A stretch of 64,000 bases of DNA from Escherichia coli (lineage in GTDB: Bacteria > Pseudomonadota > Gammaproteobacteria > Enterobacterales > Enterobacteriaceae): NCBI RefSeq assembly GCF_051903065.1, contig NZ_CP178438.1; one strand, written 5' to 3'. The notes beneath the pieces were generated by a model, which saw nothing but the letters and a program-made list of their open reading frames with translations, ran no database searches and had not been told where the DNA came from. The translations under genes and the position numbers were made by a program. Positions 23,018-46,157 of the stretch are shown in pieces. The number at the start of each line of letters is the position of its first letter. The first letter of the stretch is position 1.

Positions 23018-23222
23018 TAATATCGTAATTTTGAAAATGGTAATCCTGTTCACGGCACCATAATTAGAGTTATGTCTTGTATCCGTTCAGTATAATTTCA
23101 CGAATGCTTTATTAACTGGATGCGTGACTGCCATTCATCAAATGACAAAGACGTCATCGCGATTGATGGAAAAGCACTTCCACACTCCTATGATAAAAGT
23201 GGTCGCAGGAGAGCGGGCTTTC
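23018..23222 (+). pseudogene. Second ISAs1-family transposase fragment (about 200 bp, direct repeat of 21095-21300)
   Basis: YGDFENG...[24 protein letters not shown]... segment is duplicated at both locations. Confidence 0.7.
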
Positions 23223-27968: not shown

Positions 27969-28130
27969 GTCTGGCGTAGGCCGGATAAGACGTTTACGCC
28001 GCATCCGGCAATTGTGCACCGATGCCTGATGCGACGCTGACGCGTCTTATCATGCCTACAAATCTGTACGCGAACCGTAGGCCGAATAATGCGTTCACGC
28101 CGCATCCGACCTGAAAATTCTTAAATCAAT
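27969..28130. repeat. REP/BIME cluster
   Basis: Repeated palindromic units GCCGGATAAG...GCCGCATCCGGCA and GCCTGATGCGACGCTGACGCGTCTTATCA. Confidence 0.85.
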
Positions 28131-30558: not shown

Positions 30559-31308
30559 ATGTCCTTGCCATCGATTCCATCCTTTGTATTGTCGGGATTA
30601 CTGTTGATTTGTTTGCCGTTTTCTTCATTTGCCAGCGCCACCACATCACATATCTCTTTCAGCTACGCCGCCCGCCAGCGGATGCAAAACCGTGCGCGTT
30701 TATTAAAACAGTACCAAACCCATCTGAAAAAGCAGGCCAGCTATATTGTGGAAGGCAATGCCGAAAGCAGAAGGGCGCTGCGCCAGCACAACCGCGAACA
30801 GATAAAACAGCATCCAGAATGGTTTCCTGCGCCGCTCAAGGCGAGTGACAGACGCTGGCAGGCGCTGGCGGAAAACAACCACTTTTTAAGCAGCGACCAT
30901 TTGCATAACATTACCGAAGTGGCGATTCACCGCCTGGAGCAGCAGCTTGGCAAGCCTTACGTCTGGGGCGGCACGCGGCCTGATAAAGGCTTTGACTGTA
31001 GCGGGTTGGTTTTTTATGCCTACAACAAGATCCTCGAGGCGAAGCTCCCGCGTACGGCTAATGAGATGTATCACTACCATCGGGCAACGATTGTGGCGAA
31101 TAACGACCTGCGCCGGGGAGATTTGCTGTTTTTCCATATCCACAGCCGCGAGATTGCCGACCATATGGGGGTGTATCTGGGCGATGGGCAATTTATCGAG
31201 TCGCCGCGTACGGGGGAAACCATTCGGGTAAGCCAGTTAGCAGAACCTTTCTGGCAGGATCATTTTTTAGGCGCGCGCCGGATTTTGACGGAAGAGACGA
31301 TTTTGTAG
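30559..31308 (+). CDS. yafL: NlpC/P60-family peptidase YafL
   Basis: NlpC/P60 Cys-His core (DCSGLVFYAY...HMGVYLG); start placed at MSLPSIPSF. Confidence 0.85.
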   Translation: MSLPSIPSFVLSGLLLICLPFSSFASATTSHISFSYAARQRMQNRARLLKQYQTHLKKQASYIVEGNAESRRALRQHNREQIKQHPEWFPAPLKASDRRWQALAENNHFLSSDHLHNITEVAIHRLEQQLGKPYVWGGTRPDKGFDCSGLVFYAYNKILEAKLPRTANEMYHYHRATIVANNDLRRGDLLFFHIHSREIADHMGVYLGDGQFIESPRTGETIRVSQLAEPFWQDHFLGARRILTEETIL

Positions 31309-31395
31309 GACGGATAAGGCATTCACGCCGCATCCGGCAGTTGTACGCAGGTGCCTGATGCGACGCTGGCGCGTCTTATCATGCCTACGAGCCCG
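31309..31395. repeat. REP elements (left of rayT)
   Basis: GGATAAGGCATTCACGCCGCATCCGGCA ... GCCTGATGCGACGCTGGCGCGTCTTATCATGCCTAC. Confidence 0.85.
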
Positions 31396-31483
31396 CGAAT
31401 ATTTGCGAGCCGCTTTCCCGATATAAAACAACCTCATTGCCAACCTTTCCTTTTCTTCTTACCGTTGAGAAAAAGGAGTCGCT

Positions 31484-31981
31484 ATGTCTGAATATCGTCG
31501 TTATTACCTCAAGGGGGGAAGCTGGTTTTTCACGGTGAATTTACGGAATCGTCGAAGCCAACTTTTGACTACCCAGTACCAGACGCTCCGTAACGCCATT
31601 ATTAAAGTTAAGCGAGCCAGACCTTTTGAAATTAATGCCTGGGTAGTTTTGCCGGAGCATATGCATTGCATATGGACATTACCCGAAAGCGATGATGATT
31701 TTTCCTCCCGCTGGCGGGAGATTAAAAAGCAGTTCACCCATGCTTGCGGATTGAAAAATATCTGGCAACCGCGTTTTTGGGAGCACGCCATTCGCAATAC
31801 CACAGATTATCGCCATCATGTTGATTATATTTATATAAATCCAGTGAAACATGGCTGGGTAAAGCAGGTGAGAGATTGGCCATTCTCAACGTTCCATCGC
31901 GATGTCGCGCGAGGGTTATATCCCATCAATTGGGCGGGAGACATAACGGATTTGAGCGCTGGGGAGCGTATCATTTTATAA
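31484..31981 (+). CDS. rayT: REP-associated tyrosine transposase RayT (TnpA_REP)
   Basis: 165 aa, matches RayT/YafM; flanked by REP clusters. Confidence 0.9.
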   Translation: MSEYRRYYLKGGSWFFTVNLRNRRSQLLTTQYQTLRNAIIKVKRARPFEINAWVVLPEHMHCIWTLPESDDDFSSRWREIKKQFTHACGLKNIWQPRFWEHAIRNTTDYRHHVDYIYINPVKHGWVKQVRDWPFSTFHRDVARGLYPINWAGDITDLSAGERIIL

Positions 31982-31990
31982 TTTTGCGCT

Positions 31991-32100
31991 GGTGCCGGAT
32001 GTGCTTACGCTTATCCGGCCTACGAATCGTGCTTTAACGGTAGGCCGGATAAGGCGTTCACGCCGCATCCGGCAATTGTGCACCAATGCCGGATGCGCCC
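31991..32100. repeat. REP elements (right of rayT)
   Basis: Inverted REP pair GCCGGATAAG...GCCGCATCCGGCA. Confidence 0.85.
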
Positions 32101-32112
32101 CTTAAAGGCCAA

Positions 32113-33843
32113 TCAACTCAACGCCCCCATAATCTTCAACTCCAGCTCATCCGGCACTTCGTTATACGACAGCACATGCAGCCCCGGCGCAAACAATCTT
32201 GCATAACGCGCCAGCAAAGGGCGCAGCTGCGGCGGCACCAGCAGCACCGGGTCTTTCCCCGCTGCTTTCATCTGCTCCTTCACCTGCGGCATCGTGCTCT
32301 GGAACTGGTTGAGCATGTTCGGGTCGACCGGCACGCTGTCGAGCATCACTTTACCGCCCTGTTGCGCCTGATTCACCACATTGGTGAGCAGATTTTCCAG
32401 CTCATTATTCAGCGTATACACCGTCAGCTCCTGCTTGCGAACGAACGGATGGGTAATGCTGCGCCGCAGCGCCAGGCGTACATCGACCGCCAGCAGAATA
32501 TGATCTTTAGTCACCGCGCTACTGGCGACCAGCACGGTGGCGATGGTGACGATATCGCGCAGGGAAACGCCTTCGGTCAGTAGTGTGCGGTACACTTTCA
32601 GCAACTGGCTGTAATTCAGCGCCGCGCTTAAGTCTTCTGCCAGGCGCGGTGCCATCGACGACAAACGGTTATGCAACTGTGTGATGTCGTCATAGTTAAA
32701 CAAATCAGGAATATAGCTGCGTACAATCTTATTCACATGGGTGGCAATCACGCTGGCGCTGTCGATCACCTGATACCCCATATTCAGCGCCTTCGCTTTC
32801 TGCGCAGGCTGGATCCAGGTCACCGGCATCCCGTACGCCGGGTCGTTCCCCAGCACGCCGTCAATCTCGCCGTAGGTTTCGCTGGAGGGCAGGGCCATCA
32901 GTTTATCCGCCGGAATATCCGCTTCATCAGCCTTAATGCCGTTGATGAAAATAGCGTACTGGCTGGGCTTAAGGCGGAAGTTTTCCCGAATGCGGATCTC
33001 CGGCAGCAGCACGCCGTTGCCGTCGGATATCACCTGTCGCACGCCGCGAATACGCTGGGTGAGCGGGTTGCCCTGGGCTTTGTCCACCAGCGCCACCAGC
33101 TTGTAACCGAGGCTTAAACTGATAGGCTCGATCAGCGGTATCGTTTCCCAACTGACCTGTTGCTCGCTGGTTTCGGTGATGGTGCGGGTCAGCGTTTCGA
33201 GACTTTTCTCCTCCGCCTCCGCTGCCTGCGGGCGTTTGCTCATCCGCCAGCCGGTAAAGCCAAGCAGGGCGCTGAACAGCAAAAACGGCAGATGCGGCAT
33301 TCCCGGCACCACCGCCAGCACAAACATAATCCCGGTGGCGGTGTAGAGCACCGACGGGCTTGCCAGCAGCTGGTGGCGCACGTCATGGGCGATATCGCCG
33401 TTGTCGCTGACGCGGGTGACGATAATCGCCGCCGCGGTGGAGAGCAGCAGGGAAGGGATCTGCGCCACCAGCCCGTCGCCGATGGTCATCAGCACATATT
33501 GCTGGAAGGCAGCATCGGCGCTCAGGTTGTATTTGAAGATCCCGATACAGACACCGCCGATCAGGTTGATCGCCAGAATCATCATCCCGGCGATGGCGTC
33601 CCCGCGCACAAACTTTGATGCCCCGTCCATCGCGCCGTAGAAATCGGCCTCGCTGGCGACATCTTTACGCCGGGTTTGCGCCTGCGCCTGGTTGATCAAC
33701 CCGGCGTTAAGGTCGGCGTCAATCGCCATCTGTTTGCCGGGCATCGCGTCCAGGGTAAAGCGGGCAGAAACCTCGGAAATACGCTCGGCCCCTTTGGTGA
33801 CGACGATAAAGTTGATTGTCAACAGCGTCAGTAAATCCGAGCG
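32113..33843 (-). pseudogene. lfhA: Flag-2 flhA homologue remnant, 5'-truncated
   Basis: FlhA-like from about residue 135 onward (VTKGAERISEVSARFTLDAMPGKQMAIDADLNAGLI...); N-terminal membrane region absent. Confidence 0.8.
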
Positions 33844-34582
33844 TGAAAGCATTATCGCCGCGCTGCACGGGCAGTCGATTTTCAACGGTGGCGGGTTGTC
33901 GCCGTTAAATAAAATCAGCCCGTCTCATCCGCCAAAACCTGCCACCGTGGCGGTGCCGGAAGAGACGGAGAAAAAAGCGCGCGACGTCAACGAGAAAACG
34001 GCGCTGCTGAAGAAGAAATCCGCCACCGAGCTTGGTGAGCTGGCAACCAGTATCAACACCATTGCCCGTGATGCGCATATGGAAGCGAATCTGGAGATGG
34101 AGATTGTCCCGCAGGGATTACGCGTGCTGATTAAAGACGACCAGAATCGCAATATGTTCGAACGCGGCAGCGCGCAGATTATGCCGTTCTTTAAAACGCT
34201 GCTGGTGGAGTTAGCGCCAGTGTTCGACTCGCTCGATAATAAAATTATTATTACCGGGCATACCGATGCGATGGCCTACAAAAACAATATCTACAACAAC
34301 TGGAACCTTTCGGGTGACCGCGCGCTTTCGGCTCGTCGGGTGCTGGAAGAGGCCGGAATGCCGGAAGATAAAGTGATGCAGGTAAGCGCAATGGCGGACC
34401 AGATGCTGCTGGATGCCAAAAATCCGCAAAGCGCGGGCAATCGGCGTATTGAGATTATGGTGCTGACCAAAAGTGCGTCCGATACGCTGTATCAATACTT
34501 TGGTCAGCATGGGGATAAAGTGGTGCAGCCGCTGGTGCAAAAGCTGGATAAGCAGCAGGTGCTTTCGCAGCGAACGCGCTAA
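33844..34582 (+). pseudogene. lafU: Flag-2 motB-like remnant, 5'-truncated (junction coordinate approximate)
   Basis: OmpA/MotB C-domain (IIITGHTDAM...NWNLSGDRALSARRVLEEAG...NRRIEIMVL); no MotB N-terminal TM segment. Confidence 0.7.
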
Positions 34583-34620
34583 ATGCTGAATCTTTACGCA
34601 TTTCTCAAACCCTGAAATCA

Positions 34621-34636
34621 CTGTATACTTTACCAG
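34621..34636. promoter_or_regulatory. LexA box upstream of dinB
   Basis: CTGTATACTTTACCAG 17 bp upstream of the dinB ATG. Confidence 0.8.
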
Positions 34637-34652
34637 TGTTGAGAGGTGAGCA

Positions 34653-35708
34653 ATGCGTAAAATCATTCATGTGGATATGGACTGCTTTTTCGCCGCAGTG
34701 GAGATGCGCGACAATCCCGCCCTGCGCGATATCCCTATTGCTATTGGCGGCAGCCGCGAACGTCGGGGGGTGATCAGCACCGCCAATTATCCCGCGCGTA
34801 AATTTGGCGTACGCAGCGCTATGCCGACAGGGATGGCGCTCAAATTATGCCCACATCTCACCTTGCTTCCGGGGCGCTTTGACGCCTACAAAGAAGCCTC
34901 AAATCATATCCGTGAAATCTTCTCGCGCTACACCTCTCGCATTGAGCCGTTGTCACTGGATGAGGCTTATCTCGATGTCACCGACAGCGTCCATTGCCAC
35001 GGTTCTGCGACCCTCATCGCCCAGGAAATCCGCCAGACGATTTTCAGCGAGCTGCAACTGACGGCGTCTGCGGGCGTGGCGCCAGTAAAGTTTCTCGCCA
35101 AAATCGCCTCCGACATGAATAAACCCAACGGCCAGTTTGTGATTACGCCGGCAGAAGTTCCGACATTTTTACAAACCTTACCACTGGCAAAAATCCCCGG
35201 CGTCGGCAAAGTCTCGGCGGCAAAACTGGAAGCGATGGGGCTGCGGACCTGCGGTGATGTACAAAAGTGTGATCTGGTGATTCTGCTTAAACGCTTTGGC
35301 AAATTTGGCCGCATTTTGTGGGAGCGTAGTCAGGGGATTGACGAGCGCGACGTTAACAGCGAACGGTTACGAAAATCCGTCGGCGTGGAACGCACGATGG
35401 CGGAAGATATTCATCACTGGTCTGAATGTGAAGCGATTATCGAGCGGCTGTATCCGGAACTTGAACGCCGTCTGGCAAAGGTAAAACCTGATTTACTGAT
35501 TGCTCGCCAGGGAGTGAAATTAAAGTTCGACGATTTTCAGCAAACCACTCAGGAGCACGTCTGGCCGCGGCTGAATAAAGCTGACTTAATCGCCACCGCG
35601 CGTAAAACCTGGGATGAACGCCGCGGCGGGCGAGGTGTGCGACTGGTGGGGCTGCATGTGACGTTGCTTGACCCGCAAATGGAAAGACAACTGGTGCTGG
35701 GATTATGA
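34653..35708 (+). CDS. dinB: DNA polymerase IV
   Basis: 351 aa, [20 protein letters not shown]... Confidence 0.97.
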
Positions 35709-36157
35709 ATAACATACAAATAAGAAACTATCAGCCTGGCGATTTTCAGCAACTATGCGCTATTTTCATTAGAGCGGTTATGATGACCGCCAGTCAGCAT
35801 TATTCACCACAACAAATTGCCGCCTGGGCGCAGATTGACGAATCTCGCTGGAAGGAGAAACTCGCGAAATCACAAGTGCGGGTTGCAGTCATTAATGCAC
35901 AACCGGTTGGTTTTATTTCCCGCATTGAACATTATATCGATATGTTATTTGTTGACCCTGAATACACCCGCCGTGGGGTTGCCAGTGCTTTGTTAAAACC
36001 TTGGATTAAGTCTGAATCCGAACTTACGGTGGACGCCAGCATAACCGCAAAACCCTTTTTTGAACGTTATGGTTTTCAGACAGTTAAGCAGCAGCGCGTT
36101 GAATGCCGGGGAGCGTGGTTTACTAATTTTTCTATGCGATATAAACCGCAACATTAA
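35705..36157 (+). CDS. yafP: GNAT-family acetyltransferase YafP
   Basis: 150 aa; ATG overlaps the dinB stop (ATGA). Confidence 0.85.
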
Positions 36158-36462
36158 ATCCAGCTTGCAAGGAAAATAACGCCCGCTTGGTATGTGCGCG
36201 TTTTCTTATTCCACAAACTGCAAGGAGGTAAATCATGACAAATCCTTTATCAATGACTCTTTGCAGACCTTTCCAGGATTAATTCTTTTTTTCTTGCCCT
36301 GGATTCGTCTGCCATTTCCTGATTTTTATATTTATATACTCTAAATAATTCGAGTTGCAGGAAGGCGACAAGCGAGTGAATCCCCAGGAGCTTACATAAG
36401 TAAGTGACTGGGGTGAACGAACGCAGTCGCAGTTCATGCAACTTGAAGTATGACGAGTATAA

Positions 36463-37011
36463 ATGGAATGGTACATGGGCAAATATATTCGTCCCTTATC
36501 CGATGCGGTATTTACCATCGCATCTGATGACCTGTGGATCGAGAGTTTAGCGATCCAACAATTACACACCACGGCAAATTTACCCAACATGCAGCGCGTA
36601 GTGGGGATGCCAGATTTACACACCCCGGACGCGGCTACCCGATTGGCGCAGCGTTCTTCTCTGTTGGTCGTTTTTACCCGGCAAGACGTCGCGGTAACGG
36701 TGCTGGAAACCGAAGCCGGGCGTTATCCTGACACGCTGCGTTCGTCGGGGCCGGGCGGTCAACATGTCAATAAAACCGACTCGACGGTACGCGCCACGCA
36801 TTTGGCATCCGGTATTAGCGTGAAGGTTCAGTCAGAGCGTAGTCAGCATGCTAACAAGCGGCTGGCACGATTGCTGATTGCCTGGAAGCTGGAGCAACAG
36901 CAACAGGAAAATAGCGCAGTGCTGAAATCGCAGCGGCGAATGTTCCATCACCAGATTGAACGTGGCAACCCGCGACGGACATTCACAGGGATGGCTTTTA
37001 TCGAAGGATAA
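36463..37011 (+). pseudogene. prfH: rtcB'-prfH' fusion remnant (release-factor homologue RF-H with GGQ motif, truncated)
   Basis: N-terminal ~50 aa resemble the RtcB N-terminus (...VVGMPDLH...); the rest is release-factor-like ([20 protein letters not shown]...). Confidence 0.6.
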
Positions 37012-44903: not shown

Positions 44904-44979
44904 GCCGATATAGCTCAGTTGGTAGAGCAGCGCATTCGTAATGCGAAGGTCGTAGGTTCGACTCCTATTATCGGCACCA
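44904..44979 (+). tRNA. thrW: tRNA-Thr (anticodon CGT)
   Basis: GCCGATATAGCTCAGTTGGTAGAGCAGCGCATTCGTAATGCGAAGGTCGTAGGTTCGACTCCTATTATCGGCACCA; cloverleaf with CGT anticodon. Confidence 0.95.
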
Positions 44980-44993
44980 TTTAAATCAATAAG

Positions 44994-46157
44994 TTACACA
45001 TCATTAGTACCTTCCTTATTTTTTGACTGGGACAAATTTGGGACCGATGGGTTCAGGATCGAGTCTATTTGCCGTGCGTGTTCGGTAAGGTGATTAGGTG
45101 CAAGGTGAGCATATCGACGAACCATTTCGATAGACTCCCAGCCTCCCATTTCCTGTAACACTGACAACGGGACTCCGGCTTGAACTAGCCAACTTGCCCA
45201 GGTGTGTCTCAAGTCGTGAAATCTGAAATCATCAATACCAGCCCGTCTCAGCGCCGCTTTCCAGGCTGTGTTTGCGTCATACCGCATCTTCCTTACTGTT
45301 GGCGCTTTCGTTCCGTCTGGTTTGGTACAGCTTTCCTTGTACACAAATACCCAACGGTGATGATTCCCGATTTGTTTTTTCAAAACGCGACATGCAGTAT
45401 CATTCAGCGCAACGCCAATTGCGCGGTTTGATTTACTCTCTTCCGGGTTTATCCATGCCACCCGGCGCTGCATGTCTATTTGTTGCCATTCAAGGTTGAT
45501 GATGTTCGAGCGTCTTAAGCCTGTTGCCAGTGCAAATTCAACAACAGACTTTAATGGCTCCGGACATTCATCAATCAGCCTTTGTGCTTCATGGGGCTCC
45601 AGCCAGCGGATCCGTTTATTCTTTGGTTGAGGCACTTTAATAATTGGTGCCTTATCCAGCATTTTCCATTCACGCTCTGCGGCTCTTAGTAGGGCCTTTA
45701 TAAATGAAAGATGCGTAGCCTTCGTTGCAACGGACGCTGGTTTTGGCGTGTATTCTGGAACAGGTTTCCCTTTTTTTCTGCATGCTTCTGCCCTGAGTCT
45801 CCAGTTTTCCTCATGACGCCGGTTCGTCATTTTCTGCATTGCTGAATAAATTTTTGATTCAGTAATGTCTCTTAGTTGCATTCCTGCGAAATGTTGAAGC
45901 CAGAATCCGATCCGGCTTTTGTCATCGTCCAGTGATTTTTTATGTGCTTTCTCTTCAAGCCACCTGACACACGCTTCCTCGAACGTTATATCAGGTATTT
46001 CACCAAGTTTGCTGACCCGCCATGCTTCAGCCTTTAGCTTGTCATGGAGTTCTGTCGCCTGCCTTTTGTCCTTTGTTCCAAGAGACTGTTTAAATCTTTT
46101 ACCGTTCGGCAATGTGAAACTGGCGTACCATATTTCACCTCTGCGGAAGAGTGACAT
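44994..46157 (-). CDS. int: Phage tyrosine integrase (P22-type, thrW-specific)
   Basis: 387 aa, [31 protein letters not shown]...; C-terminal catalytic domain ([10 protein letters not shown]...RYAH); directly adjacent to the tRNA 3' end. Confidence 0.93.

Follow-up and report, generated by a model that had tools for sequence, protein, structure and literature searches.

The truncated lfhA-lafU gene pair of an Escherichia coli chromosome, a deletion scar of the Flag-2 flagellar locus

Two truncated flagellar genes between rayT and dinB

The stretch of DNA analysed here, referred to as the window, comprises 64,000 nucleotides of an Escherichia coli contig (NZ_CP178438.1). According to the list of open reading frames and the RefSeq annotation of matching genomes, the region of interest has the gene order yafL-rayT-lfhA'-lafU'-dinB, and it is embedded in the wider order yafJ-dpaA-yafQ-dinJ-yafL-rayT-lfhA'-lafU'-dinB-yafP, which is the same as in K-12. 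Synteny with K-12 extends across positions 23208-44989, and the truncated pair occupies the site between yafL-rayT (or hicAB) and dinB. The two chromosomes differ downstream of dinB, where yafN-yafO are absent from the window, and in the degree of sequence divergence, which peaks at 6.6-7% over rayT and lfhA' as compared with a baseline of ~1-2.4%.

The left flank (31484..32112, plus strand) consists of rayT, the gene of a REP-associated tyrosine transposase (31484-31981, plus strand, identified as an open reading frame and by the RefSeq annotation of matching strains), followed by REP-like repeats that reach the stop codon of lfhA'. When aligned to the intact Flag-2 locus of strain 2010C_3902, positions 32000-32097 find matches at several intergenic sites of that locus. 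In other strains hicAB is found in the left-flank position instead of rayT. The right flank is dinB (DNA polymerase IV, 34653..35708, plus strand), which begins 70 bp downstream of lafU' and forms the conserved border of this site on the chromosome. A 3.7-kb region around the two truncated genes has a match in 5425 of 5426 complete E. coli genomes, while only 10 of 5463 records match it at 99% or more; strain 23CRST027 is 100% identical over this region, except for a copy of IS1 that is present in 23CRST027. A search against Rfam found no RNA family within 32113-34582.

The first of the two genes lies in a minus-strand open reading frame (32113..33885, 590 amino acids) that begins with a TTG codon at 33885. 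Only a part of this frame, positions 32113..33816, is the remnant of lfhA, the Flag-2 gene of the FlhA-family export gate; it corresponds to the 3' 1704 nt of the gene, i.e. 567 codons and the stop codon. The remnant matches the Pfam family FHIPEP (E=1e-188), albeit only profile positions 99-656 of 657, whereas intact LfhA (697 amino acids, strain 2010C_3902) covers positions 1-656. A functional protein of the FlhA/FHIPEP type is of full length and includes the N-terminal membrane domain; here profile positions 1-98 are deleted, codons 1-130 are missing together with the native start codon, and 567 of the 697 codons are left. The reading frame of what remains is open, with no internal stop codon in the window. 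The upstream end of the open reading frame (33817..33885, minus strand) is a spurious extension of 23 codons, LKIDCPCSAAIMLSRSDLLTLLT, which is the antisense strand of lafU' and has no match to the N-terminus of LfhA. RefSeq labels the gene in K-12-like strains and in strains 100% identical to the window as 'FlhA, incomplete, missing N-terminus', adjoining 'LafU'. The allele in the window is not the K-12-type allele, as the two differ at 78 of 1704 nt (~4.6%).

The second gene lies in a plus-strand open reading frame (33692..34582, 296 amino acids), of which positions 33814..34582 represent the 3' 769 nt of lafU (residues 53-307), the Flag-2 gene of a MotB-like stator protein. Codons 1-51 and most of codon 52 are gone (about 52 of 307 residues). 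A Pfam search detects the OmpA domain (E=1.3e-14) and does not detect the MotB_plug domain, whereas intact LafU (307 amino acids, 2010C_3902) contains OmpA as well as MotB_plug, the latter at residues 19-70. The lost part comprises the transmembrane helix, the plug and a conserved aspartate, D39, in the motif AFADFTLAMMALF. In MotB the proton-binding residue is Asp32; we aligned D39 of intact LafU to it by eye, and the segment AFADFTLAMMALF is presumably the proton-binding helix. A functional MotB/LafU stator protein has an N-terminal membrane helix with this aspartate and a plug, and the remnant has neither. Upstream of the remnant the open reading frame is again spurious (33692..33813, plus strand): its 41 extra codons are the antisense strand of lfhA' and have no match to the N-terminus of LafU. 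Note that the 261-residue 'LafU' coding sequence of RefSeq (786 nt) starts within this extension, at a GTG codon at 33797, a position that we obtained by coordinate transfer from the 786-nt coding sequence annotated in identical strains and in K-12-like ones. The first six codons of this coding sequence are thus antisense lfhA sequence, and the protein named 'putative lateral flagellar export/assembly protein LafU' in RefSeq is, in this chromosome, a truncated, chimeric open reading frame and not a working stator.

The junction and the missing cluster

The point at which the two remnants meet was placed by a three-way alignment of the window with both breakpoints of the intact locus. Homology to lfhA ends at 33816 and homology to lafU begins at 33814, so that the deletion junction is the trinucleotide GAT at 33814..33816, the only bases common to both parental breakpoints. 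If the microhomology is extended to six bases, five of the six match (GTTGAT versus GTGGAT). Local alignment of the +/-60 bp around the two breakpoints gave no direct or inverted repeat of greater length. A longer repeat was considered as an explanation for the 'direct repeats' of the literature or for a recurrent deletion and was dismissed, only the GAT (five of six bases) being present.

The two open reading frames overlap head to head at 33692-33885. This overlap is mechanical, as each frame, once beyond the junction, simply continues on the antisense strand of its neighbour until it meets a start-type codon with a stop before it. The initial annotation had described a 5'-truncated minus-strand flhA homologue facing a 5'-truncated plus-strand motB-like gene, and both the Pfam matches and the open reading frames agree with this description. 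It had placed the meeting point of the overlapping frames near 33843; the head-to-head overlap holds, although the true junction at 33814-33816 lies ~28 bp further to the left, as came out of the very alignment to an intact Flag-2 locus that had been suggested as a check. Nor did extension of the frames recover a full-length lfhA or lafU, the outcome that was named beforehand as speaking against truncation: the extensions are unlike the true N-termini. The join is not an assembly artefact, since a 120-bp probe spanning the junction finds an uninterrupted match in 4085 of the 5426 complete E. coli genomes.

As the reference for an intact locus we used strain 2010C_3902, which has ~44 annotated genes between hicAB and dinB. 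Window positions 32109-33825 align to the 3' part of its lfhA with 95.3% nucleotide identity, and positions 33811-35000 align to the 3' part of its lafU and to dinB with 97.5% nucleotide identity. Both ends of the cluster are collinear between the window and intact Flag-2 loci (E. coli 042 type; 2010C_3902 and 873.10), and what lies between them is missing: 35,083 bp in comparison with 2010C_3902 and ~35.3 kb in comparison with 873.10, that is, about 40 genes. The absent flagellar genes are lfhB, lfiRQPNM, lafK, lfiE-J, the lfg genes and lafA-T. In the intact locus each of the two genes closes its operon, lfhA the minus-strand lfiMNPQR-lfhBA operon and lafU the plus-strand laf operon, so that the deletion also took away their promoters.

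Distribution of the scar in E. coli and E. albertii

The Flag-2 deletion scar of E. coli K-12 was reportedly described by Ren, Beatson, Parkhill & Pallen in 2005 (J Bacteriol 187:1430). The structure in the window corresponds to the fhiA-mbhA pair of K-12 in its chromosomal site between yafL/rayT and dinB, in its truncated genes and in its junction nucleotides. The carriers of the junction probe include DH1 (K-12), BL21, O157:H7 and E2348/69; the 120-bp junction is 99.2-100% identical, without gaps, to that of DH1, BL21 and O157:H7, and a column-by-column alignment of 11 scar strains agrees that the junction nucleotides are the same as in K-12. The genes fhiA (the lfhA pseudogene) and mbhA (the lafU pseudogene) are known as the sole Flag-2 remnants in K-12 and B (PMC3032704), and in a set of 100 E. 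coli strains 76 were without Flag-2, all 76 carrying the truncated pair (PMC6993521). As the cause of the deletion, the latter source names recombination between direct repeats (PMC6993521, with reference to Ren et al. 2005). The alignment, the RefSeq labels and the two cited studies (PMC3032704, PMC6993521) thus bear out the initial identification of the pair as the known remnant of the second, lateral-type flagellar locus. The scar is a textbook remnant that was already known, and finding it here is correct but ordinary. That the strain has lost Flag-2, as was also stated initially, is true of this locus; the evidence covers the 64-kb window.

A second probe, covering the deleted 5' end of lfhA together with lfhB, matches 1291 of the 5426 genomes and always once per genome. 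The scar and the intact state together account for 99% of the genomes (4085 + 1291 of 5426), with ~75% carrying the scar and ~24% the intact locus.

The junction also occurs outside E. coli. In a scan of one genome per species, the same junction string (22 nt, identical) was found in the type strain of E. albertii. The E. albertii copy differs from the window in several respects: its lfhA' is ~5-6% diverged and carries a 22-bp frameshifting deletion, the 3' end of its lafU' is different, and homology to the window stops at ~34666, just inside dinB. The same 2.5-kb truncated pair has been described in Flag-2-negative E. albertii, and Flag-2 is carried by ~25% of E. albertii genomes (PMC11420993).

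State of the remnants and probable exchange with intact alleles

The condition of the two remnants was studied in scar sequences, 11 from complete genomes and 12 from metagenomes, and in 14 intact ones, a small and non-random sample that was chosen to be diverse. Codon statistics were calculated on distinct alleles, of which 21 were scar and 9 were intact alleles. Two metagenome sequences were left out as poor assemblies (L032 with 71 indels and L034 with 0.78x coverage), as was, from the codon statistics, the intact strain E41 (L049), which has a shortened FlhA annotation and an indel. Two of the 24 metagenome matches (L026 and L038) were rejected as chance matches in AT-rich, unrelated DNA.

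The decay of the remnants is slight. Both frames have stayed open in the window, as they have in 10 of the 11 complete scar genomes sampled; none of the 11 has an indel in either remnant, and the single stop codon is that in lfhA' of E2348/69. Scar alleles differ from each other by 4-6% at the nucleotide level, and nearly all of these differences are synonymous. For lfhA' the mean dS between scar alleles is 0.20 with a dN/dS of 0.027, and the respective values between intact lfhA alleles are 0.22 and 0.029; the dN/dS of ~0.03 is therefore like that of intact genes. In the same strains dN/dS is 0.039 for lafU' and 0.019 for the neighbouring functional dinB. The high dS of the remnant is a property of the whole locus, since two E. 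coli strains differ by 3-5% across the entire Flag-2 cluster and by ~1.2% in the flanking core. In a supposed pseudogene, a dN/dS of 0.03 is a value that selection on the remnant would give as well. Non-synonymous and synonymous singletons number 13 versus 64 among scar alleles and 4 versus 28 in a sample of intact alleles that is too small for the contrast to be informative, and near-identical allele pairs show ~23 synonymous versus 8 non-synonymous recent differences, a number too low for gauging constraint directly. The 'private' non-synonymous changes of K-12 are also present in an intact strain.

Lesions do nevertheless occur. Frameshifts of 1, 5 and 1 nt were seen in three of the 17 usable metagenome copies, some of them perhaps assembly errors, and metagenome copies also have two in-frame deletions. 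One end of lafU' is broken or has been replaced in two metagenome copies, and two genomes have annotated IS elements inside the matched region. The fact that such lesions are tolerated in several lineages fits the view that the remnants have no function.

These data bear on whether the truncated genes might still be functional and under selection, as an LfhA cytoplasmic-domain fragment or a soluble LafU peptidoglycan-binding domain made from a fortuitous promoter. The open frames and the low dN/dS values, close to that of dinB, would be in line with such a role, and so would the annotation of lafU as a coding sequence in RefSeq and the appearance of the Keio mbhA mutant among the hits of a screen for ciprofloxacin tolerance (PMC13131330). 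However, the phenotype of this mutant may stem from polarity on dinB, which starts 70 bp further on, and the deletion took away the promoters, ribosome-binding sites and start codons that the genes originally had. A consensus scan of 31900-34700 gave 4 promoter-like sites compared with 1.9 +/- 1.5 in shuffled sequence, which is not above chance. With no export signal and no membrane helix, LafU' would have its periplasmic domain in the wrong compartment, and K-12 lafU is reported to show no detectable expression (PMC8824477). The frames are moreover disrupted in E2348/69, in E. albertii and in several metagenome copies, and the low dN/dS can be explained by alleles held in common with intact genes, as set out below. 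Taken together, we regard functional remnants as very unlikely.

The comparison of individual scar and intact alleles provides this explanation. The K-12-type remnant is identical to the intact lfhA of strain 873.10 over all 1704 nt (0 differences), and the whole left flank up to the junction shows a single difference in 3182 nt between K-12 and 873.10; the right flank of the same two strains is 2.3% diverged, starting +67 nt beyond the junction. A similar situation is found with STEC313 (scar) and 2010C_3902 (intact), which differ by 1 nt on the left and have different right flanks. In both matched pairs one flank is hence identical, or nearly so, and the other is 2-3% diverged from 67-72 nt off the junction. 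Such one-sided identity ending at the junction points to a recombination tract that stopped where homology stops. The matched pairs do not look like fresh deletions, because a fresh deletion would have left both flanks identical. Since remnant alleles are shared with intact genes that are under selection, the low dN/dS of the remnants would require no selection on the remnants themselves. We infer from these sequences that the remnants and the intact genes probably belong to one recombining allele pool, which is a mildly new angle on a known scar. A common pool would also account for the open frames in most sampled copies of a pair that is carried by three quarters of the species.

How often the deletion took place is a related question. 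The haplotypes that carry the scar are numerous and very dissimilar, some of its alleles match intact ones fully or almost fully as far as the junction, and scar alleles are as diverse as intact ones in each 100-nt bin up to that point. A recent single sweep of the scar would be expected to leave a trough of diversity near the junction; there is none among the 21 scar alleles, and we discarded this scenario. The same observations could speak for a hotspot at which the deletion recurred, with many independent origins at the same nucleotides in varied backgrounds of E. coli and E. albertii. But the homology at the breakpoints amounts to 3 bp (5/6) and no longer repeat is nearby, and we know of no reason why a deletion should recur with nucleotide exactness. 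The matched pairs are identical on one flank only, which is the signature of a recombination tract, and 99% of the genomes are accounted for without alternative junctions. Recurrent deletion is accordingly an explanation to which we give hardly any credence. The identical junction together with the 3-bp microhomology rather suggests a single origin of the deletion.

We therefore favour, with high confidence, the explanation that the pair is the inert scar of a ~35-kb Flag-2 deletion with one origin, whose remnants have been kept by recombination with intact alleles. The deletion would have been a single illegitimate-recombination event that joined lfhA codon 130 to lafU codon 52 at the GAT microhomology, and it has stripped both remnants of their 5' ends, ribosome-binding sites and operon promoters. 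The remnants can yield neither an export gate nor a stator, so that no Flag-2 flagella can be built from this locus. The scar has persisted as a presence/absence polymorphism in E. coli, with the junction common to E. albertii, while homologous recombination would overwrite the remnants with alleles from intact, selected loci in tracts that stop at the junction. Nothing in the data contradicts the identity of the scar as such, and the weak points are all in the evolutionary model.

As a feature of this genome the scar is of small importance: the strain shares with most E. coli the inability to produce lateral flagella of the Flag-2 type from this locus. It does offer a useful caution. As long as an intact, selected copy circulates within one recombining species, a low dN/dS and open frames are no proof that a fragment is functional. 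If the remnants and the intact genes do form one allele pool, loss and regain of the cluster are reversible in principle. We speculate that the scar might be one state of a long-lived, reversible polymorphism across species, with Flag-2 being regained or lost again; we put this forward tentatively, as a possibility that we think somewhat less probable than its opposite. If it were true, the 1.7-kb and 0.77-kb remnants would serve as homology arms for restoring or removing the 35-kb cluster, and the similar share of carriers in the two species (24% in E. coli and ~25% in E. albertii) would reflect balancing or fluctuating selection, namely on the possession of a second flagellum. The scar and its intact counterpart may offer a clean natural system for studying where recombination tracts end at a boundary of heterology and how a 35-kb gene cluster is lost and regained.

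Divergence and gene content to the left of the scar

When the window is compared with K-12, a local divergence peak of 6.6-7% covers rayT together with the 3' portion of lfhA' (31000-33999), and elsewhere in the shared block (23208-44989) the divergence is about 1-2.4%. Between two E. coli strains, the whole of the intact Flag-2 cluster shows 3-5% divergence and the flanking core about 1.2%. On the left side of lfhA, the cassette (31484-32112) is polymorphic among the compared loci (L003, L007-L009 and L011): rayT and REP repeats are common to the window, K-12 and O157:H7, while STEC313, E2348/69 and 2010C_3902 (a strain with an intact Flag-2 locus) carry a hicAB toxin-antitoxin pair. This rayT/hicAB variation applies to both Flag-2 states, the intact and the deleted cluster. 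Rfam gives two matches above the gathering score to naRNA4, a REP325-type nucleoid-associated RNA, in the intergenic REP regions near lpcA (27979-28056) and after yafL (31308-31385), respectively.

The block at 1-23207 is absent from the K-12 region and, judging from its 99.99% identity to the annotated scar strain 23CRST027, is a type VI secretion cluster. It contains the genes from tssH to tssB, an IS903B copy, hcp and a frameshifted vgrG, as well as phospholipase effector genes (Tla1/Tli1a/Tle1) and a gene for an M35 peptidase; its edge carries ISAs1 remnants. 23CRST027 corresponds to the window plus two IS1 copies, one of which splits rayT. Adjacent alignment blocks of the two sequences overlap by 9-10 bp at 23051-23059 and 31588-31597; these overlaps indicate the IS1 insertion points and fit the 9-bp target duplication of IS1. 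The 3.7-kb region around the scar is matched at ≥99% by only 10 of 5463 records, therefore the window haplotype is rare.

Right flank and the thrW site

To the right of the scar, dinB (34653..35708) directly overlaps yafP (35705..36157). In K-12 and O157:H7 the yafN-yafO toxin-antitoxin pair lies between these two genes, but it is absent from the window and likewise from 23CRST027, 2010C_3902 and E2348/69. A second deletion scar is located 2 kb downstream of the Flag-2 scar (36425-37011), where an rtcB 5' fragment and a prfH 3' fragment form a single-frame fusion ORF of 182 aa (36463..37011). Both the window and K-12 lack about 1 kb relative to an intact rtcB-prfH pair, although the deletion in the window is larger by about 170 bp. 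Further on (44904-46109 and onward), a tyrosine integrase gene lies directly after a tRNA-Thr gene (44904-44976), together with phage genes of the yfdQRST-like type. Homology to K-12 ends at 44989, therefore the thrW site holds a different prophage from that of K-12.

The junction in other genomes

In E2348/69 (L011), two bases right at the junction are substituted (GTTGATTGTC -> GTTGAATGGC, equivalent to window positions 33816 and 33819), and the lfhA' of this strain also has an internal stop. In a scan of one genome per species, the exact junction pattern had no match in the E. coli representative; a junction variant of the E2348/69 type is a possible, hypothetical reason for this.

Two metagenome contigs with the Flag-2 scar (L020 and L021; 95.4-95.6% identity to the window) belong to MAGs deposited under the names 'Clostridiales bacterium' and 'Collinsella sp.'; contamination of the two bins by contigs from E. 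coli is almost certain. The E. albertii type strain NBRC 107761 (L019) has the exact junction in common with the E. coli scar. Genome-wide, a divergence of roughly 10% is expected between E. coli and E. albertii, but the lfhA' of NBRC 107761 is only about 5-6% diverged from that of the window, which does not exceed the difference among E. coli alleles. Flag-2 carriers make up 24% of E. coli by our count, close to the about 25% reported among E. albertii genomes (PMC11420993).
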